DNA of 64,000 nucleotides from Lentisphaerae bacterium RIFOXYA12_FULL_48_11 (GTDB lineage Bacteria > Verrucomicrobiota > Kiritimatiellia > UBA8416 > YA12-FULL-48-11): positions 16,629 to 80,628 of the forward strand of contig MHBM01000157.1 in NCBI GenBank assembly GCA_001804885.1, written 5' to 3'. A program made the position numbers and the translations under genes. Each line of letters begins with the position of its first letter. Position 1 is the stretch's first letter. The notes under the pieces are model-generated. The model saw only the letters and a list, made by a program, of their open reading frames with translations. It had not been told where the DNA came from and searched no databases. Below, in pieces: positions 28,264 through 44,812 of this stretch.

Positions 28264-29892
28264 ATGACAGGGCGTGAAAGAATTAGAAAAGCTTTTCAGA
28301 GACAGGAAACAGACCGGGTCCCATGGGTACCTTTCGTAGGATGCCACGCCGGTTCACTCATTGGTGTTTCAGCCGAGAATTACCTCAAATCCGCGGATAA
28401 CATCGTAAAAGGTCTTGAAAAAGCCATAGAACTATATCAACCGGACGGAATCCCCGTCGTTTTCGACCTGCAGATTGAGGCTGAAACGCTAGGATGTGAC
28501 CTTATGTGGGCCGAACAGAACCCACCCTCTGTTTCGAGCCATACCATTCTAAAAGGGATATCACTGGAATCGCTGAAAGTGCCGACACCTGATTCTGGGC
28601 GAATTCCAATTGCCATCGAAGCAACGCGCCGCATCAGAGAAAAGTATCCCGATATAGCAGTGTACTGTCTCCTGACAGGGCCATTCACCCTCGCATTGCA
28701 CCTCTTGGGAACTGATATTTTCATGAAAATGTTCGATGAACCAGCTTACGTACACCGATTGATGACCTTCTGCTCCGAAGTCTGCAAGAAAATTGCCGGT
28801 TATTATATCGGCGCCGGATGTGACGTGATCGCGCTTGTTGACCCCATGACAAGCCAGATTGGGCCTGACCAGTTCCGGGAATTTGTCAGCCAGTATGCCA
28901 GCGATATTTTCCAGGATATCCGCAAGCAGAACACTCTCAGTTCATTCTTTGTCTGCGGCCACGCCCAACAGAACGTTGAAGCCATGTGCGAGTGTCAGAC
29001 CGACAATATATCCGTTGACGAGAATATCCCGCTCGAATTCGTACGTGATATTTGCCTTTCACATAATGTCAGCTTTGGCGGCAACATCCAGCTGACTTCG
29101 GTTCTTTTGCTGGGCACGCCTATTGATTCCCAGAGAAATGCAATTACATGCGTGGAAACCGCCGGAAACAAGGGTTTCATTCTTTCTCCAGGCTGCGACC
29201 TGCCATACTCAACACCAGCGGCTAATCTCCAGGCAATTACAAAGATTGTACACGACAATTATGAGCGTGACGTAGTCAAGGCAATAGCAGATGACAAACG
29301 CAAGGTGGACCTTCTGAATCTCGCCGATTACGGACAGGCCGACAAGGTGATTGTAGATATCATCACGCTGGACTCCGAAGCCTGTGCGCCCTGCCAGTAT
29401 ATGGTCGAATCTGTAAAAGCAGTCGCTCCCGAGTTTGAAGGAATCGTCATCTGGAGGGAACACAAGATCAAGCATCAGGAATCCCTCATCTTCATGACAT
29501 CCCTCATGGTCCGCAATGTACCAACAATCTGCATTGATGGTGAAATCAGGTTCGTATCACGCATTCCGGCAAGAGACGACCTCATCGCCGCAATACAGAA
29601 ACGTATCAACGACAAACTCCGGATCAAGATCCAGCGTCGTAAAGCCTCGTTGTTGATTCTCGGCGACGGAGGAGAAGCGTGTAAAAAGATCGAAAAGAAC
29701 GCGAAGAAGGCCATAAAAGAACTGGGAGCCGACATCGACATTGTCATGGTTACCGATTCCGATAAAGTGACATCTTACGGCTTCCTGAAAGGTCAGACCC
29801 CGGCAACACTCCTGGCGAGGTATCAGACCAAAACGACCCAGATCATTCCTGAAGTTGCCATAATCAAGGAGTGGATCAAGGACGTAACGTGA
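28264..29892 (+). CDS. uroporphyrinogen-decarboxylase (URO-D/MtaA-like) family protein fused to two C-terminal thioredoxin-fold domains
   Basis: A ribosome-binding site AAAGGAGA precedes the ATG. Residues 1-340 begin [21 protein letters not shown], a URO-D-type N-terminus with His/Cys-rich [14 protein letters not shown]. Residues ~370-450 have CAPC (29383-29394) in a redox-active-disulfide-protein-2-like fold. Residues ~460-540 ([36 protein letters not shown]) repeat that fold with the CxxC reduced to one Cys. Confidence 0.6.
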
Positions 29893-30794
29893 ACAAGATA
29901 CCTGTTATTATTATTACAGGTTATCTTGGCGCCGGAAAAACAACTTTTCTTAATCACATTCTTTCCCTGCCGTCTATAGCAGGAAAGAAACTGGCCCTAA
30001 TAATAAATGAATTCGGATCACTTAGCGTGGATGGACAACTCGTCCGTAAGGGTGATTACTCCAAGTATGATCTGAATCGCGGCAGCATCTTCTGCATCTG
30101 CATCAAGACGGATTTCATAACAACAATGACTTCAATAGCAGAAGAGGTGAAGCCGGATCTGCTCATCATCGAGGCTACCGGCGTTGCCGATCCGTGTGAT
30201 CTTGAACAGATTGTGGATGTTCCAACATTAAAAGACACTTTTGAAATCAGCCGGGAAGTTTGCCTTATCGACGCTGTAAACTTTACGCGCACCGCGCCAA
30301 TCATGCAAGCAGCCCAAAACCAGGTTTTACGCGCTGATATTCTAGTAATCAACAAAACGGACCTGGCATCGGAAAAAGATGTCAACCGACTATCGGAAAT
30401 CCTGCAGCGGATGAATCCTTCCGCCAAGCAGGAGAAAGTCGTTCAGGGACAAATCTCAGAGGAACTTATTATCGGATCGGACAAAACATCACGTAAAGCC
30501 GGATCCTTATCGTGCTGCCCGCCAGAGACCCTGGCTGCTGTATCGGTGCGGTTCAACAAGCAGGTCGACGGGGCAAAACTTCTCTCACTCGTCAAGGAGC
30601 TGGGGAAGAACCTTTTACGCGCAAAAGGCATTATCAACTTTGGTGATGGACCCGTCATTTTTGAGACAATCTTTGAACGTATATCAGAGCGACCGGCTCC
30701 GCAAGCTGACAAGGTAGATATGATGCTTACAATGATAACCCTGGGCATTCCAAAAGATAATCTGCGCTCAAAAATGGAAAGCTTGCAGATCTAA
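29889..30794 (+). CDS. G3E-family P-loop GTPase (CobW/COG0523-like metallochaperone)
   Basis: Walker [20 protein letters not shown] metal-binding CxC ([10 protein letters not shown]) sits in place of the COG0523 CxCC. The GTG at 29889 overlaps the upstream TGA (GTGA), so translation is probably coupled. The alternative start is 29871. Confidence 0.65.
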
Positions 30795-31582
30795 ACCTTC
30801 TTTACGGCATAATTTCTAAGCATTCTGGCAAAAACGCTGACAGGGCTGCCACGTCGACCGACGCGACAAACATGGCTGTCTTGTATTAATCGGCGAAATG
30901 CATCATGGTTGTTCAGATCAAGATCGGCTTCCAATAAAGTACCATAACTGCCGACAACATCTTCCTGTCCGGCAAAAGGAAGAGGATCCGTGCCAGCCAG
31001 AATCTTAACACCCTTACGCTCTGCATATCGCATTATTGCAGGTTCGCCCCAGCCCAATGGACGCATGGAAGTATCACCCACCAGCAATTGATGGGAAGGA
31101 ATGGAATCAAAAACCGACAAAACAATTTCTCCACGATCTCCAAACCATTTACCAGGCGCCCAGGGAAGTACAGGCACTCCTCCCCCGGCAATAATCTGCC
31201 TTATAAGGTCATGGATATTACCACCATCAGGGATATTTAGGTCCGCAGTCAGCGCCAGTACTTCCAGTCTTTCCCTGCTAACTATCTGCCGCCCGGCTAT
31301 CAGATACAGCTGGCCACCTTCCCGATCGGAGACAATAAGAACATTCTTCTCCGAAGACTGTTCGATGGAGTAATTTTGCCCCGAAGGTCGAAGCTGTCCC
31401 GACATCAACTGTTCAAAGAAATTACAACCCTGTCTTTCCGAAAGAAACAAAGCCAAAGCTGCATCCCGGGAAATGCCTTCATGCGTTTTAAGACTACCAA
31501 GGTTATTAAACGCAGCCCGAAAGACCTTGTTCAGATCATAACATTCATAAAGGTGAACATGTGTATCAGCAAGAACCTGCAT
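30791..31582 (-). CDS. hypothetical metal-dependent hydrolase-like protein (N-terminal D-T-H-V-H motif)
   Basis: [13 protein letters not shown] is an HxH metal-binding start, as in the amidohydrolase/TatD/PHP superfamilies. Later acidic residues (GTDPLP) could complete a metal site. No family assignment is possible by eye. Confidence 0.3.
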
Positions 31583-31696: not shown

Positions 31697-32401
31697 ATGT
31701 ATCCCGAAACAGCCGATATTGAAACATCTTCAGCCGATTACGCAAAACGGTTCTCGGGCCCGGCCGGGGAATGGATGTTGAAGATCCAGGAACAAATTGT
31801 CACCGACTGGATGAAGTCGCTCCCCAACGCTACTATACTTGATGTCGGAGGAGGACACGGCCAGCTGGCTATTCCGTTTGCCCGGCTCGGTCATCCTGTA
31901 ACAGTACTCGGGAGCGATGCGACATGCGGACTCCGGCTCCAAAACGAGAAATATATTACTTTCAAAACAGGAAACGTCATTGATCTTCCCTTCCCTGACA
32001 AATCGTTTGATGCGGTCATGTGTATTCGGCTTATTCCACACTGTACCCGCTGGCCTGAACTCATTGGCCAGTTATGCAGGGTTGCGAGACAATTGGTTAT
32101 TGTTGATTACCCGACCATCCAAAGCATTAACGTCTTCTCATCTTCCATGTTTGGCCTGAAGAAAAAACTGGAAGGAAATACAAGGCCATTTACATTATTC
32201 AAGCATTCGGAAATCATGAACGAGTTCCAGAAGAATAACTTTGAGAAGGAAAGCTGTCGTGCTCAATTTTTCCTGCCAATGGTTCTGCACCGGAAGCTGA
32301 ATAGCCCTGCCCTGTCGTCCTGCCTTGAAGGTCTTTTCAGAATGACAGGCCTGACCGCTCTGTTTGGATCACCGGTTCTTCTCGAGATGAAACGACAATG
32401 A
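31697..32401 (+). CDS. class I SAM-dependent methyltransferase
   Basis: Motif I ILDVGGGHGQLAIPFA. An acidic post-I residue and motif II/III spacing fit Methyltransf_11/25. Confidence 0.7.
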   Translation: MYPETADIETSSADYAKRFSGPAGEWMLKIQEQIVTDWMKSLPNATILDVGGGHGQLAIPFARLGHPVTVLGSDATCGLRLQNEKYITFKTGNVIDLPFPDKSFDAVMCIRLIPHCTRWPELIGQLCRVARQLVIVDYPTIQSINVFSSSMFGLKKKLEGNTRPFTLFKHSEIMNEFQKNNFEKESCRAQFFLPMVLHRKLNSPALSSCLEGLFRMTGLTALFGSPVLLEMKRQ

Positions 32402-33417
32402 TGAATATTCCACATTCCAGCATTCCAAAGGGAGCAAGGATTTTAGTGACCGGCGCAACCGGTTTTACCGGCTCGCTCCTGACGCGAAAACTGGCGGAAA
32501 ACGGTGCAATAATCCACGCCATAGCCCGGTCCTCATCCAAGATTGAATCATTGCAAGACCTGAATATACGCTGGTTCAGAGGTGAAGTTTATGATCCGGC
32601 GACAGTGAAGACAGCAATGGAAGGCGTATCATACGTTTTCCATCTTGCAGCGGTTTATCGTGAAGCCAAAGCCGGCGAGGACATGAACCACAAGGTTCAT
32701 GTCGAGAGCACAAAGCTGCTCGCAGAAACAGCAAAGACGATCCCGTCCTTCCAGCGCTTCGTACATATATCTACAGTCGGTGTACACGGTCACATCGAAA
32801 ATCCACCGGCTGATGAAAATTACCCATTCAATCCCGGTGACATTTATCAAAAGACCAAGGCTGAAGCTGAATTATGGCTCAAGGAATATGCCAAGACAAC
32901 AGGGCTGCCATTTACCGTGATACGCCCAGCTGCCATTTATGGACCAGGCGACACACGACTTTTGAAAGTATTTAAGATGGCTGCATGGCCTGTCTTCCCG
33001 ATTCTTGGCAATGGCAAATGTCTCTATCACCTGATCCATGTTGATGACCTGACCAGCGTAATGATCCTGACCGCAACACACCCAGCCGCACTCAACGAGA
33101 CTTTCATATGCGGAAACCCTGACCCCATAAAACTTGAAGAAATTGGCCGCACCATTGCATCAGAATTGGGGATGAATACAAGGGTTATCAGGCTTCCTGC
33201 ATGGCCGTTCTTCGCGCTTGGCGCTGTCTGCGAAGCAGTCTGTAAACCGTTCGGCATCGAACCACCGATCTATCGCAGGCGCGTTGCATTTTTCACAAAA
33301 GATCGAGCTTTCAATACCAGTAAATTGCAGGAAAAACTTGGATATTCCTATAAGTATTCCAACAAGGAAGGATTAATCCAAACCGCCAGATGGTATGTCG
33401 AGAACGGCTGGCTTTAG
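32398..33417 (+). CDS. NAD-dependent epimerase/dehydratase (extended SDR)
   Basis: ILVTGATGFTGSLL is a TGxxGxxG Rossmann start, and the catalytic YxxxK is YQKTK. An ATGA overlap with the methyltransferase is present. Confidence 0.75.
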   Translation: MMNIPHSSIPKGARILVTGATGFTGSLLTRKLAENGAIIHAIARSSSKIESLQDLNIRWFRGEVYDPATVKTAMEGVSYVFHLAAVYREAKAGEDMNHKVHVESTKLLAETAKTIPSFQRFVHISTVGVHGHIENPPADENYPFNPGDIYQKTKAEAELWLKEYAKTTGLPFTVIRPAAIYGPGDTRLLKVFKMAAWPVFPILGNGKCLYHLIHVDDLTSVMILTATHPAALNETFICGNPDPIKLEEIGRTIASELGMNTRVIRLPAWPFFALGAVCEAVCKPFGIEPPIYRRRVAFFTKDRAFNTSKLQEKLGYSYKYSNKEGLIQTARWYVENGWL

Positions 33418-33436
33418 AGCCTTCCATAAGAAGGCT
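33414..33436. terminator. convergent-gene hairpin (agagccttc-cataa-gaaggctct)
   Basis: A perfect 9-bp stem with 5-nt loop overlaps the epimerase stop codon and lies just downstream of the convergent GT4 gene. Neither strand has a U-tract. Confidence 0.35.
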
Positions 33437-34600
33437 CTATCCGCGGGTAACAGATTCCATCAGCCTGCAGAATTCTGTAACTGTCTTCTCAAAAGCCTTT
33501 CCTGAATATTTCTCCAGCGCAACTCTTGCAGCTTTTTCAACAAGCTTATTACGCAGATCGGAATCAGATGCAAGACGAAGCATTCCATCAGCAAACCTTT
33601 CTGGTACTGCTGGCTCGAGCACGGCCATCTCATTGGAAAGAACCTGCGTATGCGATTCAATATCTGTCGCCAGTATGGGCTTCCCGGAATTGAGGTATGC
33701 ATAGATCTTCATGGGCGTATTGACACCTGTTATCCTTGGCGAAACCAATACATCTGCAACAGCTACAAATTCTCCTACCTCTTTCACAGGCTTTGGACCC
33801 AGGAAACGGACCATATCTTTAATTCCAAGAGTCGTGCACATATCCTGGTATTTCTTTACGTCAGGAGGCGTCCCACCTACCACGGCCAAGCTGATTTTGA
33901 CCCCCTTCTTAACTGCCAGGGCAAAGCTGTTTAAAAGGAGGTCTATTCCCTGGTATATCTCAAGATTTCCGATATACATGAAACATGTCCCAGCCAGGCC
34001 TAGCTGCTTTTTCTGCTCAGTTGAATTCACTTTGCCCTTGATAGAAAAAGCCGGCGGATCACGTAGAATTATAATCCGTCGCCCTTCACTTCTTTGCGCC
34101 ACTTTTGCAAGCGCATCACAAACCGGAACAACAACCGCGGCACGGCGAATAGCTTTGGATTCAAACCATCTCAGCAAAGGGAGAAGAAACGACAGAAATC
34201 GTTTTTTTTCGACAATTTGTTCCGGCATTGAAGAATCCATGTCATAGACATAAGGTATCCCGTAAATGTTTTTTATCATCTCGGCAATGAACACCGACTC
34301 CTCAACTGCATGGATGTACTGATAGTCCCCACTAACAGCCAACTTCAACGCCTTAAACAACAGCAAGACATCACAAACCAGTTTCTTGAAAGAAAAACCT
34401 GGCGGAATATTGGTAATCCAGGAAAGTGATGGAATGCGAATGATACGGACATTTTTGTACTCGACACCCAATCCTTCATGAAAAGTCAGAACATCCACAA
34501 ACCAACCCTGCCGAGACATAGCCTCGACAAGAGCCCTAACTGCAATGGGCGTACCCCTCTCGGTAAAAAACGGTTGCGGTGCCAACAAGAGAACTTTCAT
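33437..34600 (-). CDS. glycosyltransferase family 4 (GT-B, retaining)
   Basis: The start MKVLLLAPQPFFTERGTPIA is typical of GT4. The C-terminal half has the EX7E-like region (SPRITGVNTPMKIYAYLNSGKPILAT). Confidence 0.7.
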   Translation of the reverse strand: MKVLLLAPQPFFTERGTPIAVRALVEAMSRQGWFVDVLTFHEGLGVEYKNVRIIRIPSLSWITNIPPGFSFKKLVCDVLLLFKALKLAVSGDYQYIHAVEESVFIAEMIKNIYGIPYVYDMDSSMPEQIVEKKRFLSFLLPLLRWFESKAIRRAAVVVPVCDALAKVAQRSEGRRIIILRDPPAFSIKGKVNSTEQKKQLGLAGTCFMYIGNLEIYQGIDLLLNSFALAVKKGVKISLAVVGGTPPDVKKYQDMCTTLGIKDMVRFLGPKPVKEVGEFVAVADVLVSPRITGVNTPMKIYAYLNSGKPILATDIESHTQVLSNEMAVLEPAVPERFADGMLRLASDSDLRNKLVEKAARVALEKYSGKAFEKTVTEFCRLMESVTRG

Positions 34601-34866
34601 ATAATTCCGTGTTTTTACTCCATAAAGAGAGGCTATTCAATCCGAAAAGGGGCTTTCTAAAATTAGCCAAAAAAGCATGTATTCATCCACTGGACAATAG
34701 CACGTCTGCAACGGTTTGTATGCGAGCCGGGAGGACAAAAACCCCGGGAATTGATGTATCCGCAATAGCGCCTCGAACCACAGCTGAATCCTGCTATTTC
34801 TCAGCCAAATCCGATTTGGGTAACACGCCCAGCCCCACCCATCCTAAACGTTAAGGTAACCATGTG

Positions 34867-35132
34867 CTATTTTTGAGCGGAAACCTGAAGTGCTGTTCCG
34901 TCACAGGAGACAATAATATGACCATCGGTATTGGTGACGTACACTTTTGCACCGACCGGTTCATAAAAACGCTTGATTCGTTCAGGGATTCCTTTGGCCC
35001 AGGGTAAATCTGACAGGCAGGCAATTGCAATCTTCGGACGGGTCAGAGCCGCTTCTTCCTGAATGGTATAGATTCCGTTTTACCCGCCAAACACTTTGCA
35101 TGAAAATCTCGATCAATAGTACAACGCGCCAT
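34867..35132 (-). pseudogene. small ORF broken by a frameshift at an A-run (candidate pseudogene or sequencing error)
   Basis: The minus-strand ATG at 35132 gives MARCTIDRDFHAKCLAGKTE.., which stops after 29 codons. A 70-codon frame with no start (NGIYTIQEEAALTRPKIAIACLSDLPWAKGIPERIKRFYEPVGAKVYVTNTDGHIIVSCDGTALQVSAQK*) continues from the same point. The two frames meet at gggtaaaacgg. Confidence 0.4.
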
Positions 35133-35329
35133 TACCTGCTCATTATTACTTTTTTTCCAGTGAAGCTTCCCGCGGCAAGCCGCGGGCATTTTGGCGAAGG
35201 CGAGTAAACTTGTTTAAATTCCCATGCTTCTCCAATAATTCGATCTTTTAAACAACCGTCAAGAAACTGCTGGTTTTTGCATATTGTGACTGGTAGATTT
35301 CTGCACCATGTAATTGCGGATTTGAGAAT

Positions 35330-35803
35330 ATGGCTGACACTTTAAATAATAATGAAAAGGCTGAATCGGTATGGCCGTGTAGTAAAGAAACTATACTAAC
35401 GACCTTACCCGCCAATATGCCACATTCAGCACCAAAACGGGCATTTACCCAATTTGCCATCGCTTTGATCATTGCAGCACTGTTCTATTTTCTATTCAAG
35501 AAACCGGTTATGGCAGCAATTGTGACCGGGATATCCACAGTAGTTCTGATATGCGGTCTTTTCATCCCACCAGCCTTCCTGGCAATCGAGAAATTCGGAT
35601 TGAAACTGGGTGAATGGGTAGCAACAAGTCTGACATGGATCCTGCTCGTACCGTTTTTCTACATCTGTTTTGTACCGGGGCGGATTATCATAAGCCTTGC
35701 CGGCAAGGATCCGCTCAATCTGAAGTTTTCGTCTACAGCAAAGACATACTGGGTACCACGTATTCCTGTAAATGATATTGCACGATACGGAAAACAGCAT
35801 TGA
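35330..35803 (+). CDS. small polytopic membrane protein, SxtJ-like (carbamoyltransferase-associated)
   Basis: 3-4 predicted transmembrane helices. The stop overlaps the carbamoyltransferase start (ATGA at 35800). The true start may be internal (MPHSAPKRAF). Confidence 0.45.
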   Translation: MADTLNNNEKAESVWPCSKETILTTLPANMPHSAPKRAFTQFAIALIIAALFYFLFKKPVMAAIVTGISTVVLICGLFIPPAFLAIEKFGLKLGEWVATSLTWILLVPFFYICFVPGRIIISLAGKDPLNLKFSSTAKTYWVPRIPVNDIARYGKQH

Positions 35804-37629
35804 TGAATATTCTAGGCATAAGCGCTTTTTATCATGATTCCGCCGCCGCGTTAATCCGCGATGGAAAGATCATCGCCGCAGCACAGGAAGAAAGGTTTTC
35901 CCGCAAGAAACACGATGAGCGATTCCCCATCAACGCAATCAAGTATTGCCTCGCAGAAGGCGGAATCGGAAAAGGACAACTGGACGCCATAGCTTTCTAC
36001 GACAAGCCCGTAACCAAGTTCGCTCGAATTCTTGAAACATACTTCAGCGTGGCCCCTAAGGGTTTGAATTCTTTCATGATGGCCCTGCCCATATGGCTGA
36101 AACAAAAGCTCTGGATTCCAATGGAAATAGAAATCGCCATGGAACAGTGCGGAATGGACACCCCAAAGATCTATTTCCCTGAACATCACGAATCACACGC
36201 GGCCAGCGCTTTTTATCCATCTCCATTTCAAAGCGCTGCAGTCCTGACGATAGATGGTGTCGGTGAGTGGGCAACCAGTACACTTGGCCGTGGCGACGGA
36301 AACAAACTGGAAATAATCAGCGACCTCCGATTCCCACACTCGCTCGGACTCCTCTACTCCGCGTTCACTTATTTCACTGGATTCAGAGTTAATTCCGGCG
36401 AGTACAAGCTTATGGGCCTGGCCCCATACGGCGAGCCCAGGTACGTTGACCTGATATACAAGAATCTGATCGATGTAAAGGAAGACGGCTCATTGGCGCT
36501 GAACATGAAATACTTCGGGTACCTTGACGGTTTGACAATGACCAATGACAAGTTTGCCGAACTATTCGGGGGTCCGGCCCGGAAATCGGAGAGCGAGATC
36601 ACCCAGCGTGAAATGGATATTGCCCGCTCGATACAAGTGGTGACAGAGGAAATAGTCCTCAAGATGGCAAAACACCTCCAAACTATAACAGGCGAAAAGA
36701 ACCTCTGCATGGCTGGCGGCGTTGCCCTAAATTGTGTGGCGAACGGAAGATTGCTACGCGAAGGACCTTTTGAAAACATCTGGATCCAGCCTGCGGCAGG
36801 TGACGCAGGCGGGGCACTTGGTGCAGCAATGCTCGTATGGCACCTGGTCAACAAGGGTGAACGGAACGCCGACGGCGTGCATGACTCCATGCAAGGCGCC
36901 TACCTTGGCCCGGAATTTAAGGATGATGATATAGAAGCATACCTGAAAAGCAAAGGGTATCCGGCCAAAAATCTTGTCGGCGACGAATGGGCAAAAACTT
37001 TAGCCAAAATTATAGACGAACAAAATGTTATCGGTCTTGTTCACGGCAGAATGGAATTTGGACCGCGCGCACTGGGAAACCGCTCCATAGTCGGCGATGC
37101 GCGCTCCACCAAAATGCAGTCAATCATGAATCTCAAGATCAAGTACCGCGAATCGTTCCGGCCGTTTGCGCCATCCTGCCTGGTCGAAAAAGTAGACAAA
37201 TTCTTCGAACTCGATACCCCATCGCCTTACATGCTCTTAGTCGCGCCCGTCAGGAAAGAACGGTGTCTCGGCCAGGAAAACATGACAAAGATTCCAATCC
37301 GGGAACGGATAAACCAGGCACGATCCGATGTTCCGGCAATCACGCATGTTGATTATTCCGCCCGAGTACAGACCGTAGATCGATCGACCAATCCACGCTA
37401 CTACGATCTGATAAAGGCCTTCGAAGACAGGACAGGCTACGGAATCATTATTAACACTTCTTTCAACGTTCGTGGTGAGCCTATCGTAGGCTCACCTGAA
37501 GACGCCTATCGCTGTTTCATGCGTACAGAAATGGACTACCTGGTCCTCGGCTCTTTCCTCTTGAACAAGAAAGAACAGCCACCATGGGCCGAGCAAGCAA
37601 ACTGGCGCCTGGACTACGTGTTAGATTGA
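35800..37629 (+). CDS. carbamoyltransferase, NodU/CmcH family
   Basis: N-terminus MNILGISAFYHDSAAALIRDGKIIAAAQEERFSRKKHD matches the family signature. The Kae1/YgjD-like and C-terminal carbamoyl-phosphate domains give a consistent 609-aa length. Confidence 0.88.
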   Translation: MMNILGISAFYHDSAAALIRDGKIIAAAQEERFSRKKHDERFPINAIKYCLAEGGIGKGQLDAIAFYDKPVTKFARILETYFSVAPKGLNSFMMALPIWLKQKLWIPMEIEIAMEQCGMDTPKIYFPEHHESHAASAFYPSPFQSAAVLTIDGVGEWATSTLGRGDGNKLEIISDLRFPHSLGLLYSAFTYFTGFRVNSGEYKLMGLAPYGEPRYVDLIYKNLIDVKEDGSLALNMKYFGYLDGLTMTNDKFAELFGGPARKSESEITQREMDIARSIQVVTEEIVLKMAKHLQTITGEKNLCMAGGVALNCVANGRLLREGPFENIWIQPAAGDAGGALGAAMLVWHLVNKGERNADGVHDSMQGAYLGPEFKDDDIEAYLKSKGYPAKNLVGDEWAKTLAKIIDEQNVIGLVHGRMEFGPRALGNRSIVGDARSTKMQSIMNLKIKYRESFRPFAPSCLVEKVDKFFELDTPSPYMLLVAPVRKERCLGQENMTKIPIRERINQARSDVPAITHVDYSARVQTVDRSTNPRYYDLIKAFEDRTGYGIIINTSFNVRGEPIVGSPEDAYRCFMRTEMDYLVLGSFLLNKKEQPPWAEQANWRLDYVLD

Positions 37630-37707
37630 AATAACAGTACTTTCTCCCTGCAAACTTCCAATTTTGAGACAGGTTCTAATTGCAAAGGCATTAACCATAG
37701 CCAAAGA

Positions 37708-37789
37708 CGGCTCGCGGGTACGCTCGCCCTCCCAAATCACACCAAACACTGATCTTTCTCCAGGGAGGGCGAGCGTACCCGCGAGCCGT
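37708..37789. repeat. perfect 26-bp inverted repeat with 30-nt spacer (cggctcgcgggtacgctcgccctccc ... gggagggcgagcgtacccgcgagccg)
   Basis: Read directly from the sequence. It lies in the 320-bp spacer between the carbamoyltransferase and the downstream small ORF. Further short palindromes follow: agcgcc-a-ggcgct at 37811-37823 and gccac...gtggc. Confidence 0.85.
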
Positions 37790-37949
37790 TCATGGCCAGT
37801 CTTCCTCGTCAGCGCCAGGCGCTAAACGGCCACTTGGTTAAAATGCCGACGTGGCATGACGAGCCGCCAAATGATTATTGTTTAGTTGCAAAGGGATGTT
37901 CTCTTTACTAGTTTATTCCCGAATTTATCACTGCTCAGGAGATGGCACG

Positions 37950-38114
37950 ATGAGATTTTTAAGACATTTAGGGAATCTGCTCAAGGAATTCGGCGGATTT
38001 GCGTGGCACCACAAGGCGTGGTGGATCATACCAGTAGTTCTCACCCTGCTCCTGCTTGGGCTGTTGATAACCGTGGGGCAGTCATCGGCACCGTTCATTT
38101 ACACCCTGTTCTAA
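37950..38114 (+). CDS. small membrane protein, DUF5989/SxtK-like
   Basis: An AGGAGA site precedes ATG 37950. The 54-aa product MRFLRHLGNLLKEFGGFAWHHKAWWIIPVVLTLLLLGLLITVGQSSAPFIYTLF has one transmembrane helix and the conserved APFIYTLF tail. It sits next to a carbamoyltransferase. Confidence 0.55.
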   Translation: MRFLRHLGNLLKEFGGFAWHHKAWWIIPVVLTLLLLGLLITVGQSSAPFIYTLF

Positions 38115-38142
38115 TCCACTACACTTTTTAACGTTGTGACGA

Positions 38143-40338
38143 TTACAGCAACTTTTTGTACTTTATCCTGAACGACGATTTACCGTGAGGTTTCACACCT
38201 ATGAATTTGACATCTTTCCCGGCATCAAATGGGTAGATCTCCACCGGTTCTTTTGCAGTCAGACCGTCCTGCCAGACATATCGAAGGACAGCCTCTTCCA
38301 GAGGATCATCAAGAACGACGGCCAATTCATTGATTCCGCCCTTGACCTTTCCTCCGCCTTTAACAAATTGATTCATATCCCTATTCACCCTGAATATCGT
38401 TCGCGTGGGTATCCCGGGGAATGATTTCACTACCTTGTAATGTTCATTATTCAGCAAAAGAAATGTTTTCCACTGATCATGGCAAGCAATAACAAAGCTC
38501 ACATTAAAAAGATTGATATAATCAAACAATGACTTTTCATTACCCTGCACAGGTTCAACAGGATAATTAAACTGATCAGAAAACATCATCTCCCGTCTAA
38601 CAAGCATTGGAAACGGATTAACGCACACACCTCCATCCTGGTGCACGGCAGAGCCGACAAATAGCATTCTACTGCCATCAGAAGTATATTTCCCCATCCA
38701 TTCGGCAACCTGATCAACATCAGGATTCATTAGAGTATATTTCGACGGTCCTTTATTTCCATAAATCAGTGATATATTTATCGCACACATTAACAGAATA
38801 GAAATCACCATTGCCCGAACCAGAAGCATTCGAGGGGCAACATCTTCCAGCCATTTCTCCATCCACAGGGAGGCCGGTATTACTGCGACAAAGAAAAGGG
38901 GTATAGATGCATGCGACAACTGAAGATACTGACTGCCGAGATCACCACATCCCGCAAGGAGACCTAACCCTGCCATGGTGGCACCAAATACAGCCATCAT
39001 TCCCTTTTTTGGAAGAAACCACACACCAATAACGCCAAGGAAAATAAGGCAGGGATTCGCCTGCCTCAGTTGTTCCAATAAGCGACCCAATCCGGCAGAA
39101 AGTAAACCTGCGAGTTCCATTCCCCCTGCACTGCGCATTACAAAATCCATTGACTCAATCCTGCCCAAAACACCCATTATAAACGGCAGGCAAATTGCAA
39201 TTATGGAGACCACACATAACAGCAGAAAGCTTACCCGCCTCAACGACAACTGTTGCGCGCTGAAAACAACGACCAGCGGAAGCAGGATCACAATTACGGC
39301 CGAAGGCGGCCAGGCAAGCAGCATTACAAGCGCGAACACCAGCATTATTCCGGTAGAATTTGCAAAACAATCCAGCCAGAGAACACGATAAAGACATGCA
39401 ACAGCCAGCATGACAAACGGCAATGCAAAACATGCCCCGGCATTCCCGGCGACAAAAAACAAATGAAAGAAATACTGGCTGACGCCAAGGGCGAGAATCG
39501 CTGCACAGCCCGCCGCAGACCAGCCACCGCCTACGAGCCGCGCAGACAAACCAGCAAGGAAAGGAACAACTATAATAAATGAGCATGCCAGCACGGGCGT
39601 ATACATCAAATCTGTCTGGAACAGTTTCCACAGGGGCAGGAAAATCGTACCCAGGGGAATAATCCCAGTGGAAACAAGCGAAGGCGTCTCCGCACCTGCA
39701 TTCCACAAAGGATCGTAAAATATTAGCCTCGGAAATGTCTGTGCATAAATCCACAGACGATAAAGACAATTGGCATGATCATTGCCGTAAAGCGCATGCC
39801 CTCCCGTTGCCTGCCATAACTGGTTGAAAGCAGTAATTTGTGTCCAGATAAGTATTCCAAACACAATGACCCAGGCACTGATTTTCGACCTGCAACATGA
39901 AAGGACAGGCACCAATAGTGCGGCTAAAGCACAGAAAAGAAACAAACCCAGCCCATAAAGCTGGCGACCGGAAATCCACTGAAGAAAATAAAACCAAGGA
40001 TCGCTTACGGAACCGGAAACAAGATAAAAAACAAGCCCTGCCAACAAGGACCAGGCCATAACCTGGCGGTATTCGACCGGCATCTCCTGTTTATCTCCAC
40101 CAGCAGCACCAGTCCGGTGTAACAACCACAGAAAGATGACCAGGAATGAAATAACTGGCGGAACGAGCATCCACAAATGCTCAACATGAACCAATGATGA
40201 CCCTTGGGGCAGAAGAATAACAATCAAAAGGCATTCAAGGACGATTGCCCAACCACCGGCGAACCATACCCGCCAGTTACTGACATCTACCCTTGGGATA
40301 TCATTCTGATCAGCCATGCCGGGAAAATACCAGATCAC
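38143..40338 (-). CDS. large polytopic membrane protein, putative GT-C-fold glycosyltransferase/polymerase
   Basis: About 470 aa hold 10 or more transmembrane helices, followed by a ~260-aa soluble C-terminal domain. No diagnostic motif was read. Confidence 0.35.
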   Translation of the reverse strand: MIWYFPGMADQNDIPRVDVSNWRVWFAGGWAIVLECLLIVILLPQGSSLVHVEHLWMLVPPVISFLVIFLWLLHRTGAAGGDKQEMPVEYRQVMAWSLLAGLVFYLVSGSVSDPWFYFLQWISGRQLYGLGLFLFCALAALLVPVLSCCRSKISAWVIVFGILIWTQITAFNQLWQATGGHALYGNDHANCLYRLWIYAQTFPRLIFYDPLWNAGAETPSLVSTGIIPLGTIFLPLWKLFQTDLMYTPVLACSFIIVVPFLAGLSARLVGGGWSAAGCAAILALGVSQYFFHLFFVAGNAGACFALPFVMLAVACLYRVLWLDCFANSTGIMLVFALVMLLAWPPSAVIVILLPLVVVFSAQQLSLRRVSFLLLCVVSIIAICLPFIMGVLGRIESMDFVMRSAGGMELAGLLSAGLGRLLEQLRQANPCLIFLGVIGVWFLPKKGMMAVFGATMAGLGLLAGCGDLGSQYLQLSHASIPLFFVAVIPASLWMEKWLEDVAPRMLLVRAMVISILLMCAINISLIYGNKGPSKYTLMNPDVDQVAEWMGKYTSDGSRMLFVGSAVHQDGGVCVNPFPMLVRREMMFSDQFNYPVEPVQGNEKSLFDYINLFNVSFVIACHDQWKTFLLLNNEHYKVVKSFPGIPTRTIFRVNRDMNQFVKGGGKVKGGINELAVVLDDPLEEAVLRYVWQDGLTAKEPVEIYPFDAGKDVKFIGVKPHGKSSFRIKYKKLL

Positions 40339-40388
40339 CGGGAATTGAAAAGAGCCAAGTCTTGCCCTGTAGGCTAAATTTCATTCTA

Positions 40389-40973
40389 ATGGCGATTATG
40401 TCATCACCAATAGTACATATTGCTGCAGGATATGCCATATACAGTATTGTTCGTCACAAACTGCCAAAACAAAGCATTATTGGCGTACCGGCCCGTATTG
40501 GATGGCCTATCCTGTTTGCCTGCCTATCCCTTCTTCCAGACTTGGATGTTATAGTCGCCTGGACACACGGCAATATGGCGAAGTTTCACAACAACCTGAC
40601 ACACAGCCTTCTGGTCTGGATCCCATTATCATTACTTCTAGCAGCAGTACTGAAGGCTTGCACCGAAATCTCAGCAAGATGTGGGTTCTTGTTTTTTCTT
40701 GTCTCCAGCTATATGCATATCCTGGTCGATTTTTCCACATATGGAAGAGGTGTTATGCTCTTCTGGCCCATTACAACGACGCGCTTCCATGCTCCAATCA
40801 CAATATTTCAAGGTGTTCCATGGTCTGACAAGCTAACCAGCCCCAATTATCTGCAAATGTTGCTTGAGGATTGTTTTTTTGCCGCTATCGTACTTGCTCT
40901 AGTCGCTATTATTCGCAGATTCCACGCCTGGCATGAGAAACATGCATACAAGCCGGGCAATGGGATAAAATGA
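40389..40973 (+). CDS. membrane-bound metal-dependent hydrolase, YdjM/DUF457 family
   Basis: ATG at 40389 gives MAIMSSPIVHIAAGYAIY..., with conserved His positions and HNNLTHSLL (the H-x-x-x-T-H-S-L motif). The ORF-track start at 40293 would overlap the upstream gene. Confidence 0.55.
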   Translation: MAIMSSPIVHIAAGYAIYSIVRHKLPKQSIIGVPARIGWPILFACLSLLPDLDVIVAWTHGNMAKFHNNLTHSLLVWIPLSLLLAAVLKACTEISARCGFLFFLVSSYMHILVDFSTYGRGVMLFWPITTTRFHAPITIFQGVPWSDKLTSPNYLQMLLEDCFFAAIVLALVAIIRRFHAWHEKHAYKPGNGIK

Positions 40974-42256
40974 ACGTACAGGGAAAACAGAGAATAAAAA
41001 GCTTATTTGCTTATGCTTTACACTTTACAGCATTTGGCTTCCTGGCACTTGGCACGATATGCCTGCTTCTCGTACTTGGCATGATTTACAATGGAGATGC
41101 TTGGGCATACATTATTTATGCTGAGAAACCTATTCATCATTTCCTCGGTGGTATCGGCGCTCTTTTCATATTTTACCTCCTTTTCTATGGAATCTATAAT
41201 TCCCCTAAAGAATGGGGTTATTTTTCTGCCAAGGTATTACTGGCAACAATAAGCCTGACAATCTCTCTTGTAGCAGGGGAACTGAGTCTTCGCATTTATT
41301 ATTCCGCCCTGCAAAATAATATCTCAATGGAAAAGTTCAAGCTTCTTAAGCACGACGGCAAACCAATGCCTATCAAAAGTACACATGCCCTTGCGGCGAT
41401 AATCCAACCCAGCGAGAATTCAAAAGTCATTTACGAGTTACAACCAAATCTGGACAGAAAATTCGGGCACCGGCGCGTATTGACAAATACTGAAGGAATG
41501 CGGGAAGACCATGACTATTCGATAAAACGAAACAATAGAAGCATAAGAATCGTCGGCATAGGTGACTCCGGAATGTTCGGCTGGAACATTGAACAGAACG
41601 ATGATTACTTGAGCGTACTGGAAACCAACCTCAACCAACGCCAGGATGGCAACCTCTACGAGGTGCTCAACCTTGCAGTTCCCGGTTATAACACCCAGCT
41701 GGAAATCGAGATTTTGCGTAGCAAGGGCCTGAAGTACAAGCCGGACATAGTCATAGTTGGCTGGTGCGACAATGATTTCAGCCTGCCGTTTTTCATGCTC
41801 GAAAAAGAAAATTATCGCCGCCGTGATAAATCTTTTCTTTACAGCCTGCTGTTTAAGCGTAATTCAGAAAAGAAAAAACGCAGCAATGTCGCTCCCGGCT
41901 TCAAAATAACAGATCAGCGTGATTTCGAAAAAGATAGAGTTCTCCCCGAACTTACGGCCGGCTCAGACATAGACAGGGTCAGAACAGCATTAAAAGAACT
42001 AAAGAAACTGAGCGAACAGGAAAACTTCAAAGTCCTGTTTTTCGGACCAATGGGAAAAGACATTTGCAATATATGCACAGAAATCGGGGTGGCCTTCAGT
42101 AATACTCATGTGTTAATTCCACGCGATAAATACCCGAGCGACTACATCATTCACTTCATGCATCCCAACAAAAAAGGTCATGCCGTACTTGCCGAACATC
42201 TTGAAAAAGATCTGATAAATCGCGGATGGTTGCCAGCCCGCAAACAGAGCCAGTGA
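40970..42256 (+). CDS. membrane-anchored SGNH/GDSL-type hydrolase
   Basis: N-terminal transmembrane helices are followed by block I IRIVGIGDSGMFGW. A D-x-x-H-type pair occurs late in the protein (HFMHPNKKGH). ATGA overlap with upstream gene. Confidence 0.5.
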   Translation: MNVQGKQRIKSLFAYALHFTAFGFLALGTICLLLVLGMIYNGDAWAYIIYAEKPIHHFLGGIGALFIFYLLFYGIYNSPKEWGYFSAKVLLATISLTISLVAGELSLRIYYSALQNNISMEKFKLLKHDGKPMPIKSTHALAAIIQPSENSKVIYELQPNLDRKFGHRRVLTNTEGMREDHDYSIKRNNRSIRIVGIGDSGMFGWNIEQNDDYLSVLETNLNQRQDGNLYEVLNLAVPGYNTQLEIEILRSKGLKYKPDIVIVGWCDNDFSLPFFMLEKENYRRRDKSFLYSLLFKRNSEKKKRSNVAPGFKITDQRDFEKDRVLPELTAGSDIDRVRTALKELKKLSEQENFKVLFFGPMGKDICNICTEIGVAFSNTHVLIPRDKYPSDYIIHFMHPNKKGHAVLAEHLEKDLINRGWLPARKQSQ

Positions 42257-44812
42257 CTACTCTGTGCGGCTGATAACTACCCTGCTTATCTTAAGATCTG
42301 CCTCCCTTATAAATCTGAAGGCGAGAAAATAAGGTTCATTGCCCTTCTGAATGAATTCGCTGACTGCCCTCGAACCACTTATAACAGGAGTCATGCCCTG
42401 CTCTTCGTCACCCCGCCACCGCGCATTGAACTGACCGAGCACCGTCCCAGCTGGGGATGCCGTCTCAAAAACAACTTCCGCGGAATACTTACCCTTTTCA
42501 AGCGGCAGTTTCGGCCCATAAAAAACAATTGCGTCAGACTCATAGACTTTACGGAAAACCACTCCTGAAAAATCTCGCTCAGTATGACCGGCATGGAAAA
42601 AGCAGACAGCCGGCAGACTTAAGCTTTCTCCCAGCTGAACCCCCTTCCATTCACCTGCGCCGAGAATAGCGGAATCCACATCTACGTTTCCGCTCTCAAG
42701 CGACAGCACGGCATCCACAGGCGTACTTTCCTTCTTTGATGGGATACCAACCTTCTGCCATGTCCATTCCGTTGACTTAACCGGAATCATCACAGGGCTA
42801 TTCGTTACACAGGTTAAAATGTTATTCACGGAGATAATCCCCTCCCCTCGAGCACGAATAAGCCATGAAAGAGACGCTTCCAGCGGCACCAGAGTGCCCG
42901 GAACATGAACACGACCACCCGGACTCATATTCACATACCCTTTACCAAGAGCAGAAGGGTCATCCGTCTGTACAACAGCATTTGTAAGAACGGTGCGTTC
43001 CAACTCCCTCCGACGTGAAGGAAAAGTAAATGCCATAAAGCCATTCTTTTCCCTGCCAGGAGAAGGTGCAATCAAAATCTTAAAAGACCATGCCGCACCA
43101 TCCTTGCCAATACACTCCAGCCTGGGATGATTAAGCAGCTGTTGAAGCGTGTAACCAACAGTAAACGGGCTGACCTTCTCAGGAAACACATCTTCATGCA
43201 AAACCAAGTAACCTATGCCTCTCTTCAGCAACTCATCGAGCTGTCGGTCATAGATGCCGCCGACATTCATACTTTCCAACGGAAGAAAAATCTCCTCGTA
43301 GTACCTCTTCTTTACCGTACCTCCATATCCGTTCACCATGCGGATGTGATACAAGGAAATATAATACTCATTCACAGAATTAAAGTGGGAAACACCCGGC
43401 CAAAGAGGAAGCACTACAATATGCGGCTTTTTATTTCCCGATTCGCGCGCATCCTCAGCTACGGCACGATATGCACCCTGCTCACGATCCAGCCCGCAAA
43501 TGGTTGCGTCAATACGATACTTGTAATCAAAAAGAAGCGGCACAAGCAGAACAAACATTCCAAGCCGGCGTCGACCCTCAGGAAGCAGCTCCAGAATATA
43601 CCGCCAGAGCAGTCCGCAGCCGAGAGCCACAAAGAACGGCATAAGGCAGTATATTTTGTCGGCTTGGCGAATCATTTTATAAGGCGGAACAAGTATCGTC
43701 AGAAGTTTCCAGGCTTTGGGGCCAGCCGGATTTTTCGTGCCTGTAGCCAGCATGATAATTCCAACAATTCCAATACTTATAAGAAACAAAGGTAGAGGGG
43801 CGCACAGCTCGGATCTGAGATCCTTGCGACGGACAAGTATATACGCAACCCATCCGGCTGCGAGGAGGACAAGGAGATACCCCCCCATATATATTTTCCG
43901 ATTGTCATAAGGATTATTGAATTTCACCACACCAGACAAAGACAGCGAGCAGTTGGAAACTTCATCTATACTTCTACCCTTCTGGGCTATAACAGCATCT
44001 TTGAGTCCATGCTTGACACGCACCACCTGCAACGCAACCACGCCAGTGAATATGAGCAGAAATACAGCAGCTTTCAACAAGGCAACACAATCCACTTTTG
44101 ACGGCCATTTCGGATAATGGAAAATATAGCAGAAAACACACCAGAACGGCGCAGACAGTACATTAAAGAAAAAGACATGGGCATCACCCCATTCCGACAT
44201 AAACAGCCCTATGCCGGCCAGAGCTCCAGCCCAGATTTTCTTCTCGGCAATCATGACATCCAGCGCCCAGAATATTATCGGAGTCCACATCAATGTAAGA
44301 CCCGTTGGGCTGCCATCCAGCATGGTGATCCATCGATATGGGAATATTATGCTTAAAACAGCCGTAACGGCACTGAGCCAATCATCCTTTACAAAGCGCC
44401 GGATCAGAAGCCACGTAAACAGATAGGTAAGCCACAAGGTTACAAACGCCGCAAAATTGTACCCTCCAGCTTGACCGCCAAACCAGGACCCCACCAGGAA
44501 AAAGAGCGAGAACGGAAGATAATAGGTGGACAGGAAATAACGGTCTTCGTCATTGCCGGTATTAAATTCATATACGTCATGGAACCACGGCGTATTACCC
44601 TTGAACGTATCAGACGCTATCCAGAGTTGATAAAGCATTTGCAGATGATCACCAGGGATCATCATGCGCATGTTCTCCCTCTCTACATTATAAGCAGAAG
44701 ACGGAATTGCGTGTCCGGCATAACGCGGAAGGGGCCATGTAAACAAAGCCCAAACCGCCAGAGCTACCGCCAGCGAAATAAATATTCTTTTCCAGCCACC
44801 ACCAGTTCTCAC
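42257..44812 (-). CDS. large polytopic membrane protein (YfhO-like / GT-C superfamily candidate)
   Basis: 851 aa, with the N-terminal ~430 aa highly hydrophobic across 12 or more helices and a C-terminal ~400-aa extracytoplasmic domain. The call rests on architecture only. Confidence 0.35.
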   Translation of the reverse strand: MRTGGGWKRIFISLAVALAVWALFTWPLPRYAGHAIPSSAYNVERENMRMMIPGDHLQMLYQLWIASDTFKGNTPWFHDVYEFNTGNDEDRYFLSTYYLPFSLFFLVGSWFGGQAGGYNFAAFVTLWLTYLFTWLLIRRFVKDDWLSAVTAVLSIIFPYRWITMLDGSPTGLTLMWTPIIFWALDVMIAEKKIWAGALAGIGLFMSEWGDAHVFFFNVLSAPFWCVFCYIFHYPKWPSKVDCVALLKAAVFLLIFTGVVALQVVRVKHGLKDAVIAQKGRSIDEVSNCSLSLSGVVKFNNPYDNRKIYMGGYLLVLLAAGWVAYILVRRKDLRSELCAPLPLFLISIGIVGIIMLATGTKNPAGPKAWKLLTILVPPYKMIRQADKIYCLMPFFVALGCGLLWRYILELLPEGRRRLGMFVLLVPLLFDYKYRIDATICGLDREQGAYRAVAEDARESGNKKPHIVVLPLWPGVSHFNSVNEYYISLYHIRMVNGYGGTVKKRYYEEIFLPLESMNVGGIYDRQLDELLKRGIGYLVLHEDVFPEKVSPFTVGYTLQQLLNHPRLECIGKDGAAWSFKILIAPSPGREKNGFMAFTFPSRRRELERTVLTNAVVQTDDPSALGKGYVNMSPGGRVHVPGTLVPLEASLSWLIRARGEGIISVNNILTCVTNSPVMIPVKSTEWTWQKVGIPSKKESTPVDAVLSLESGNVDVDSAILGAGEWKGVQLGESLSLPAVCFFHAGHTERDFSGVVFRKVYESDAIVFYGPKLPLEKGKYSAEVVFETASPAGTVLGQFNARWRGDEEQGMTPVISGSRAVSEFIQKGNEPYFLAFRFIREADLKISRVVISRTE

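Follow-up and report, generated by a model that had tools for sequence, protein, structure and literature searches.

A carbamoyltransferase encoded between a divergent SxtJ relative and a DUF5989/SxtK-type protein in a Lentisphaerae polysaccharide locus

The saxitoxin cluster places the carbamoyltransferase SxtI beside two small proteins, SxtJ and SxtK, which have been listed as 'unknown' since the cluster was described and whose cooperation with SxtI has only been assumed. Texts of 2009, 2010, 2025 and 2026 alike have the two acting 'in conjunction' or 'as a complex' with SxtI (PMC2679770, PMC2885083, PMC12300590, bioRxiv 10.64898/2026.06.11.731795). For DUF5989, the family to which SxtK-type proteins belong, our literature search found no paper mentioning it. 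Here we describe a trio of the same three protein families in a 64,000-nucleotide stretch of Lentisphaerae bacterium RIFOXYA12_FULL_48_11 (contig MHBM01000157.1), referred to as the window: a small membrane protein (J), a carbamoyltransferase (CT) and a second small membrane protein (K), in that order. A first-pass annotation had read these genes as the carbamoyltransferase/SxtJ/SxtK-type neighbourhood with uncharacterised small partners, and families, synteny and literature agree with it. The trio is a variant of this known, uncharacterised module, with a J component invisible to Pfam, and no new kind of system.

The three genes lie on the plus strand and point in the same direction, encoding proteins of 157 (J), 608 (CT) and 54 (K) amino acids, as read from the open reading frame (ORF) listing and the raw sequence (Table 1). 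The original observation of the trio is thus confirmed, with small corrections. CT had been given as 609 amino acids, the length obtained from a TTG at 35800; because every homologue begins MNILGIS, and the window protein reads MNILGISAFY, we place the start at the ATG at 35803, one codon further in. The overlap of J and CT, described as ATGA-coupled, proves to be a 1-nt TGATG stop/start overlap (CATTGATGAAT). K is nested in a longer TTG-started ORF that begins at 37878. Promoter and terminator scans gave counts at chance level, and Rfam over 34500-38300 gave sub-threshold eukaryotic noise only.

CT matches both Pfam domains of its family, Carbam_trans_N (PF02543; E 1.3e-102, 344 bits against a cut-off of 24, profile positions 2-346 of 346) and Carbam_trans_C (PF16861; E 6.7e-71, 237.7 bits against a cut-off of 27, whole profile length). 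It aligns over its full length with the solved NovN (9s2t, E 4.5e-93), GdmN and TobZ, at E values from 4.5e-93 to 5.5e-80, and the blocks HHESHAAS, DGVGE, GDAGG, GPRALGNRS, RESFRPFAP, HVDYSARVQ and NTSFN align with those of NovN. We take the catalytic and metal- or nucleotide-binding roles of these conserved blocks to be established. These matches support the assignment of CT as a NodU/CmcH/TobZ-type O-carbamoyltransferase, its activity being predicted from sequence. An orthologue of NodU itself it is not: CT scores 159 bits on the NodU equivalog model (NCBIfam NF041651), where the cut-off is 1000, and that assignment is ruled out.

J is the member of the trio that escapes annotation. It gave no match to the Pfam SxtJ model PF19588 (gathering threshold 24.4 bits) even at E<=1, and only noise against Pfam and NCBIfam as a whole. 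NCBIfam apparently holds no SxtJ model, since a control named SxtJ by the Prokaryotic Genome Annotation Pipeline (PGAP) likewise went without an SxtJ match there. On PF19588 the PGAP-named SxtJ of Planctomyces sp. SH-PL62, used as a control, scored 1.9e-10 (41.8 bits), and two J equivalents without the SxtJ name, from a Rhodobacteraceae plasmid and from Sinorhizobium meliloti pSymB, gave 3.8e-6 and 0.015. Profile-profile comparison is what connects J to the family. We aligned the window protein and 25 of its homologues (A1) and compared the result by hhalign with a canonical SxtJ alignment of 17 sequences, mostly Planctomycete (A3), the reference set being PGAP-named or Pfam-positive SxtJ proteins in place of the SxtI/J/K sequences of saxitoxin clusters. 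The match reached 98.9% (E 1.5e-17) over 126 columns spanning all helices and the common tail GxDPL..(T/S)YW..Y.KQ[FHY], and 97.7% against a single PGAP-named Planctomycete SxtJ; a hidden Markov model (HMM) built from A1 matches three canonical SxtJ proteins at 7e-14, 5e-10 and 7e-7. Because of these profile matches we regard J as a genuine but divergent SxtJ homologue, visible at the profile level only. The SxtJ likeness proposed in the first pass therefore stands as homology and fails as a Pfam family match.

J has many relatives of its own kind. An exhaustive profile search returned 222 representatives at E<=1e-30 (full-length clusters at 50% identity), 977 at E<=1e-10 and 5403 at E<=1e-3, and a word-indexed search found 26 relatives, none of them named. 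PF19588 gave weak matches in only 2 of 81 subfamily members (best E 6.5e-4). Canonical SxtJ comprises more than 2000 clusters, and PF19588 was present in all 120 among the matches listed. By these profile searches, J's group is a sizeable, unannotated and mostly PVC (Planctomycetes, Verrucomicrobia and Chlamydiae) sister subfamily of SxtJ. The window protein itself occurs as an exact copy in 13 public contigs, including NCBI GCA_036835775.1.

The J protein opens with an N-terminal tail of about 33 residues that includes a VWPC/W motif; three helices follow, and the protein closes with the basic C-terminal tail GKDPLNLKF..TYWVPR..Y.KQH. AlphaFold2 (AF2), run on an 81-sequence alignment, gave a predicted local distance difference test score (pLDDT) of 84.5, with helices at 34-54, 59-78 and 80-124 predicted at pLDDT 95-98, the third of them 45 residues long, and a non-helical tail; a shallower run also gave three helices. 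J had been described as a protein with four transmembrane (TM) segments, which this prediction replaces with three. A Foldseek search of the model against the PDB returned no match (best E 1.5). In both SxtJ subfamilies the C-terminal tail holds about 7 lysines and arginines, with a net charge of about +3.6, and is predicted to be cytoplasmic because of this basic charge, following positive-inside reasoning. On the Ralstonia solanacearum megaplasmid, a 68-residue single-TM protein (L147:4851-5057; ..LVFIPLGWLTRLADPMQLRR..SYL..) lies beside a CT 53% identical to that of the window. It resembles, by eye, only the third helix and the DPL/TYW tail of J, has no HMM or Pfam match, and may be a minimal J.

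K is recognised directly. It matches DUF5989 (PF19451) at E 6.9e-18, with 64.9 bits against a cut-off of 27, over profile positions 3-49 of 49, which agrees with the description of a 54-residue single-TM protein ending in APFIYTLF. The protein consists of a basic amphipathic N-terminus, a single hydrophobic/TM segment and this C-terminal octapeptide, which is near-invariant from PVC bacteria to Planctomycetes and alpha-proteobacteria (alignment A6). Its 32 homologues are 67-91% identical; 30 of them have 54-55 residues and none exceeds 93. The sequence evidence supports K as a bona fide DUF5989/SxtK-type protein. Of the two small proteins, the shorter thus passes its family profile where the longer one misses. 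The K gene is uncalled in two public assemblies of the same organism (L155:7301-7813 and L156:4268-4780), so that the trio appears there as a pair.

The association of J with CT was assessed in 43 related loci (given L numbers here), of which 40 came from a genome scan with A1 and three were metagenome contigs. Among the 40, 31 belong to metagenome-assembled genomes (MAGs) of PVC bacteria (Kiritimatiellia, Verrucomicrobiota, Opitutales, Lentisphaerae/Victivallales); the rest come from Desulfobulbaceae, Desulfocapsa and Desulfobacter MAGs, Spirochaetales, Marinimicrobia, Fibrobacteraceae and unclassified bacteria. J lies directly upstream of CT on the same strand in all 43, an association far beyond chance, and the small gene is accordingly conserved beside carbamoyltransferases as the first pass had expected. 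With the window included (44 loci), the junction is of the TGATG type in 25, a 4-nt overlap in 5 and a gap of 0-7 nt in 6. Of the 37 loci whose sequence continues beyond CT, 27 have K in the flank, in most cases 20-60 nt downstream of CT; in L021, L023 and L029 it lies upstream or on the other strand. The three proteins change at different rates, with median identities to the window of 74% for CT, 71% for K and 38% for J; in the closest named genome, a Kiritimatiellae MAG, CT and K are each 89% identical. In one MAG, about 590 nt of tandemly repeated units of about 14 nt, (CACCAATRACCAAR)n, come between J and CT (L018:8391-8980).

CT itself carries marks of this association. CTs are 64-89% identical within the related-locus set, and alpha-proteobacterial, Gemmatimonadota and Planctomycete plasmid copies still reach 57-62%. 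Matches in the plasmid collection are bimodal, with a clade at 53% identity or more and the next at 47% or less; the former is found on plasmids of Gemmatirosa, Sinorhizobium/Ensifer, Planctomycetes, Rhodobacterales and Ralstonia. All J/K-linked CTs aligned share a C-terminal tail of about 20 residues, QPxWxxKxxWRxDYxLD, together with an insertion of about 25 residues (window residues ~483-507), and the closing LD is present in 41 of 41 complete J-linked CTs. Both elements are absent from the CT of a Burkholderia multivorans lipopolysaccharide (LPS)-core locus, where it lies with glycosyltransferase (GT) genes of families GT9 and GT4, from that of a Bradyrhizobium polysaccharide locus (GT/GT2/gmd/fcl), and from NolO, which lies among nod genes. 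An HMM search found no J or K in the flanks of the lower-identity CTs of Ralstonia, Tateyamaria, Burkholderia and Bradyrhizobium or of NolO. We consider the tail and insertion the most concrete new lead of this work, as a candidate surface for interaction with J and K.

Table 1. Features of the J-CT-K locus and its borders (window coordinates)
Feature	Position	Strand	Basis
J, divergent SxtJ-like membrane protein, 157 aa	35330..35803	+	ORF; hhalign; AF2; synteny
CT, predicted O-carbamoyltransferase, 608 aa, Kae1-like N domain and YrdC-like C domain	35803..37629	+	Pfam; PDB alignments
C-terminal tail of CT particular to the J/K-linked clade, KKEQPPWAEQANWRLDYVLD, a candidate site for docking of J/K	37567..37626	+	CT alignment
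GC-rich palindrome, inserted in the CT-K spacer, outside the ancestral module	37700..37796	.	Fold; comparison with relatives
AGGAG Shine-Dalgarno of K, 8 nt 5' of the ATG	37937..37941	+	Sequence reading; GGAG at the same place in L002 and L007
K, DUF5989/SxtK-type protein, 54 aa	37950..38114	+	PF19451; homologue alignment
Upstream of the trio: methyltransferase (+), NAD-dependent sugar epimerase/dehydratase (+), GT4 glycosyltransferase (-)	31697..34600	.	Pfam
Downstream of the trio: 731-aa polytopic protein without family (-), YdjM (+), GDSL/SGNH hydrolase (+)	38143..42256	.	Pfam, NCBIfam, PDB

The trio sits in a polysaccharide locus that Pfam follows from about 31.7 kb onward, after the end of the dcw cluster. 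Behind the trio come the 731-residue protein, YdjM, the GDSL hydrolase, an 851-residue protein, a GT4 and a hexapeptide acetyltransferase, and further downstream a PMT_2-type GT-C, deacetylases, another GT4, a Wzx/MurJ-type flippase and an AlgX-like SGNH protein; the locus holds three GT4 in all. Every class named in the first pass (glycosyltransferases, flippase, acetyl- and methyl-modifying enzymes) is therefore found by Pfam, and no genes of polyketide synthase (PKS), non-ribosomal peptide synthetase (NRPS) or other small-molecule pathways lie near the trio. The methyltransferase, epimerase and GT4 upstream of J are also present in the close relatives L152, L153 and L155, and the 731-residue protein and YdjM are kept in L002.

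We propose a model where J, CT and K form a membrane-tethered O-carbamoyltransferase complex that acts on a lipid-linked glycan intermediate. The gene identities, the homologies, the synteny and coupling, the clade features of CT and the polysaccharide setting are observed; complex, topology and acceptor are all things we infer, and we give the model roughly even odds (about 0.5). CT would be cytoplasmic. Its YrdC-like domain would form carbamoyl-adenylate from carbamoyl phosphate and ATP, and its Kae1-like domain would then pass the carbamoyl group to an acceptor hydroxyl. Carbamoyl-adenylate formation followed by transfer is the chemistry of TobZ, NovN and GdmN. J would be made in fixed proportion to CT through the TGATG overlap, and J and K together would hold CT at the inner face of the cytoplasmic membrane. 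Positive-inside reasoning leads us to infer that the C-terminal tail of J and the N-terminus of K are in the cytoplasm, where the likely contacts would be between these two basic elements, the latter as a helix, and the acidic tail of CT (..WRxDYxLD). The acceptor would most likely be an intermediate made by the locus around the trio, a sugar or oligosaccharide on a lipid carrier, carbamoylated before export by the Wzx-type flippase. Because the window is clearly a polysaccharide locus, glycan O-carbamoylation is the best reading for it, as a predicted substrate that should not be generalised to the module elsewhere.

Several findings weigh against this model. K is absent from the flanks of 10 of the 37 evaluable loci, and neither a J-CT fusion among the best 150 J relatives (113-217 residues) nor a K-CT fusion among 32 K relatives was found. 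Three predicted TM helices would put the N and C termini of J on opposite sides of the membrane, which makes the proposed topology tentative, and the most conserved part of K, APFIYTLF, is predicted to be non-cytoplasmic or intramembrane and so out of reach of CT. The only substrate assigned to any member, that of SxtI, is a soluble alkaloid, and the three CTs from glycan or Nod-factor contexts work without J or K. A Pfam census of 134 flanking genes in the 43 loci gave a heterogeneous picture (GDSL 7, GT2 5, epimerase 4, GT4 2). The first-pass annotation had held that the setting 'implies' O-carbamoylation of a surface glycan, with the small proteins as possible anchors; this is reasonable for the window, but 'implies' is too strong, because of the heterogeneous flanks in the 43 loci and the three glycan or Nod-factor CTs that lack J and K. 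The roles proposed here for the small proteins are plausible but putative.

It is tempting to extend the model further. The trio could be an obligate, phylum-spanning, membrane-bound holoenzyme in which J and K provide the membrane part of the acceptor site and the ..WRxDYxLD tail of CT plugs into them; the ancestral substrate would then be lipid-linked or membrane-embedded and shared by many bacteria, and SxtI/J/K a later recruitment. We regard this larger claim as tentative and would not bet on it.

Among the alternatives, the one that survives best keeps the same J-CT-K module and changes its acceptor, which instead of the local polysaccharide would be a small or membrane-embedded molecule of wide occurrence, for instance a lipid, a polyprenyl-linked precursor or a metabolite, so that the trio would be a self-contained cassette lodged in a glycan locus. 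We think this possible, if rather doubtful. Across the family only J-CT(-K) is conserved: the window's other neighbours recur in only 0-7 of 46 loci, and since flanks are so heterogeneous among the 43 loci the module as such is not tied to glycan loci. CT is also unusually conserved for a tailoring enzyme, as its identities within the set and to distant copies indicate; in Ralstonia the neighbours of a related CT are a second CT, an iron redox enzyme and an SGNH hydrolase, without glycosyltransferases, and the substrate of SxtI is not a glycan. The window and its four closest relatives tell otherwise, as GT4, epimerase and methyltransferase genes always border the module there, envelope genes follow the trio where the contig extends downstream (L002, L155, L156), and genes of small-molecule pathways are lacking nearby.

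A second alternative, which we judge unlikely, is that J and K are not subunits at all and serve product handling or the regulation of CT, for example by forming a minimal exporter or channel, by conferring immunity or sequestering a molecule, or by sensing at the membrane. The conservation of K peaks across phyla in its non-cytoplasmic or membrane C-terminal octapeptide, a pattern that a mere tether would hardly account for. J has diverged far more rapidly than its two partners, and in L021, L023 and L029 the K gene is apart from that of CT or encoded on the other strand. The TM helices, three in J and one in K, however, form no transporter fold that Foldseek recognises in the PDB, the locus already has dedicated flippase and exporter genes, and the translational coupling of J to CT and the partner-specific tail of CT point to a stoichiometric complex. 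A third possibility, that CT is an ordinary soluble carbamoyltransferase and the small ORFs stand beside it by chance or without a function, might be suggested by the uncalled 54-residue ORF in the two assemblies and the palindrome inserted between CT and K, but it is refuted by conservation: J is syntenic in 43 of 43 loci with 222 full-length representative relatives, and K has its Pfam match, 67-91% identity in 32 clusters and a conserved Shine-Dalgarno. A proposed membrane-tethered complex that would modify a lipid-linked glycan is the reading that we favour for the window.

Other genes around the trio deserve mention in their own right. GDSL/SGNH hydrolases are the commonest family among the flanking genes of J/K-type CTs, with one in the window at 40970-42256. 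In Ralstonia, one (L147:5078-6175) lies downstream of CT, past the 68-residue ORF, and the sxt gene tables of two papers place sxtL directly after sxtK. This hydrolase may be a decarbamoylase or esterase partner. A gene for a YdjM-family inner-membrane protein (window 40293-40973) stands beside the trio here and also in L002, L023, L032 and L043; in three of these loci it immediately precedes the module and is encoded on the other strand, adjoining J in L032 and L043 and with K between in L023. The 731-residue (38143-40338, -) and 851-residue (42257-44812, -) proteins have no Pfam, NCBIfam or PDB sequence match, and a 263-residue protein (30791-31582, -) has no Pfam or NCBIfam match; each of the three recurs near a J-CT-K trio in 2-3 other PVC loci. 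Farther upstream, 25741-28152 (-) encodes an 803-residue fusion of a MurC-type ligase with MurB, a MurB/C fusion having been reported in Verrucomicrobia, in keeping with a PVC origin, and 28264-29892 (+) encodes a 542-residue fusion of uroporphyrinogen decarboxylase and thioredoxin domains.

Two stretches of inserted DNA distinguish the window from its relatives. The distance from CT to K is 320 nt, compared with 20-60 nt in most relatives, because the spacer has received an insertion carrying a palindrome; relative to L002 and L007 the palindrome-bearing DNA is inserted. The palindrome has 34-nt arms (37700-37733 and 37763-37796), of which the inner 28 bp pair perfectly, around a 29-nt loop, and its RNA fold has a z score of -8.95. 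It is present once in the 64-kb window, recurs unchanged in two public assemblies of this organism, is absent from 46 related loci, and has no match in plasmids or viral contigs and no Rfam family. Metagenome contigs (GC 0.47-0.69, median 0.63) yielded at least 100 exact copies of the 25-nt arm GGCTCGCGGGTACGCTCGCCCTCCC, with unrelated flanks. These copies are mostly inverted pairs with loops of 18-42 nt and an arm order opposite to that of the window, and no recurrent protein family lies beside them; calling them intergenic from ORFs is unreliable where the contig is high in GC. The palindrome looks like a dispersed element of the repetitive extragenic palindrome (REP/REPIN) or miniature inverted-repeat transposable element (MITE) kind that crosses lineages. 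Upstream, the intergenic region between the divergent GT4 and J genes measures 729 nt, compared with 131-161 nt in the closest relatives, owing to a window-specific insert of about 600 nt (~34665-35260) bracketed by conserved promoter-proximal blocks. It carries a GC hairpin and a T-run near 35172-35195, and comparison with Pfam, Rfam, plasmids, phages and the related loci gave no match.

Beyond the window itself, these comparisons extend the SxtI/J/K module to PVC bacteria by way of a sister subfamily of SxtJ that PF19588 misses in 79 of the 81 members tested, that comprises at least 222 clusters at 50% identity, and whose window member is also without an NCBIfam match. J and CT are invariably linked and usually translationally coupled, and the partner-linked tail and insertion of CT offer concrete, mutable candidates for an interaction surface. 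The window provides a polysaccharide setting where one could look for a +43 Da modification. If the holoenzyme reading is true, the PVC J subfamily would be a non-toxic, glycan-linked system that makes an 18-year-old question about SxtJ and SxtK testable.

How closely does the trio resemble what has been described? With the saxitoxin cluster it shares all three families and nearly their sizes: sxtI (1839 bp) encodes a carbamoyltransferase of about 610 residues, compared with 608 here, and sxtK (165 bp) encodes 54 residues, exactly as K does. SxtJ-type proteins have about 135 residues, fewer than the 157 of J with its longer N-terminal tail. Each system also has a GDSL hydrolase in its vicinity (sxtL in sxt). 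The two differ in gene order, J-CT-K compared with I-J-K, and in setting, polysaccharide synthesis compared with alkaloid synthesis. J, moreover, belongs to the sister subfamily that PF19588 overlooks, whereas canonical SxtJ is detected, and it has VWPC/W where the canonical, mostly Planctomycete alignment A3 has MQWSDIQF.P.

Among annotated counterparts is the trio that PGAP names carbamoyltransferase, 'SxtJ family membrane protein' and 'DUF5989 family protein' on plasmid pPL62-1 of Planctomyces sp. SH-PL62. Its CT and that of S. meliloti pSymB are 57-58% identical to the window CT and have the same ..LD tail and insertion, and the K proteins of both end in the same APFIYTLF. The J proteins share the three-helix layout and the GxDPL..TYW..Y.KQ[FHY] tail; they are only 19-27% identical to the window J and, unlike it, score on PF19588. 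The order of the three families also varies, being CT-J-K on the Planctomycete plasmid and J-K-CT on pSymB, where the locus lies at around 484-486 kb.

The structurally solved enzymes TobZ (3VEN), GdmN (7VYJ) and NovN (9S2T) have the same two-domain architecture and catalytic blocks as CT (E 1e-80 to 1e-93). They tailor soluble antibiotics, and we know of no membrane partners described for them; GdmN is called a homodimer in the title of PMC9633730. The NovN alignment stops at residue 596 of the window CT, and the tail ..WRLDYVLD lies beyond it. WapO (of the PA5005-type LPS core), NolO and NodU resemble CT in belonging to the same enzyme family and to envelope or signal-glycan pathways, with WapO/PA5005 providing the precedent for glycan carbamoylation (PMC8005017). 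The CTs from glycan and Nod-factor contexts are 27-41% identical to the window CT and differ from it in having neither J nor K in their flanks and neither the insertion nor the tail of the partner-linked clade.

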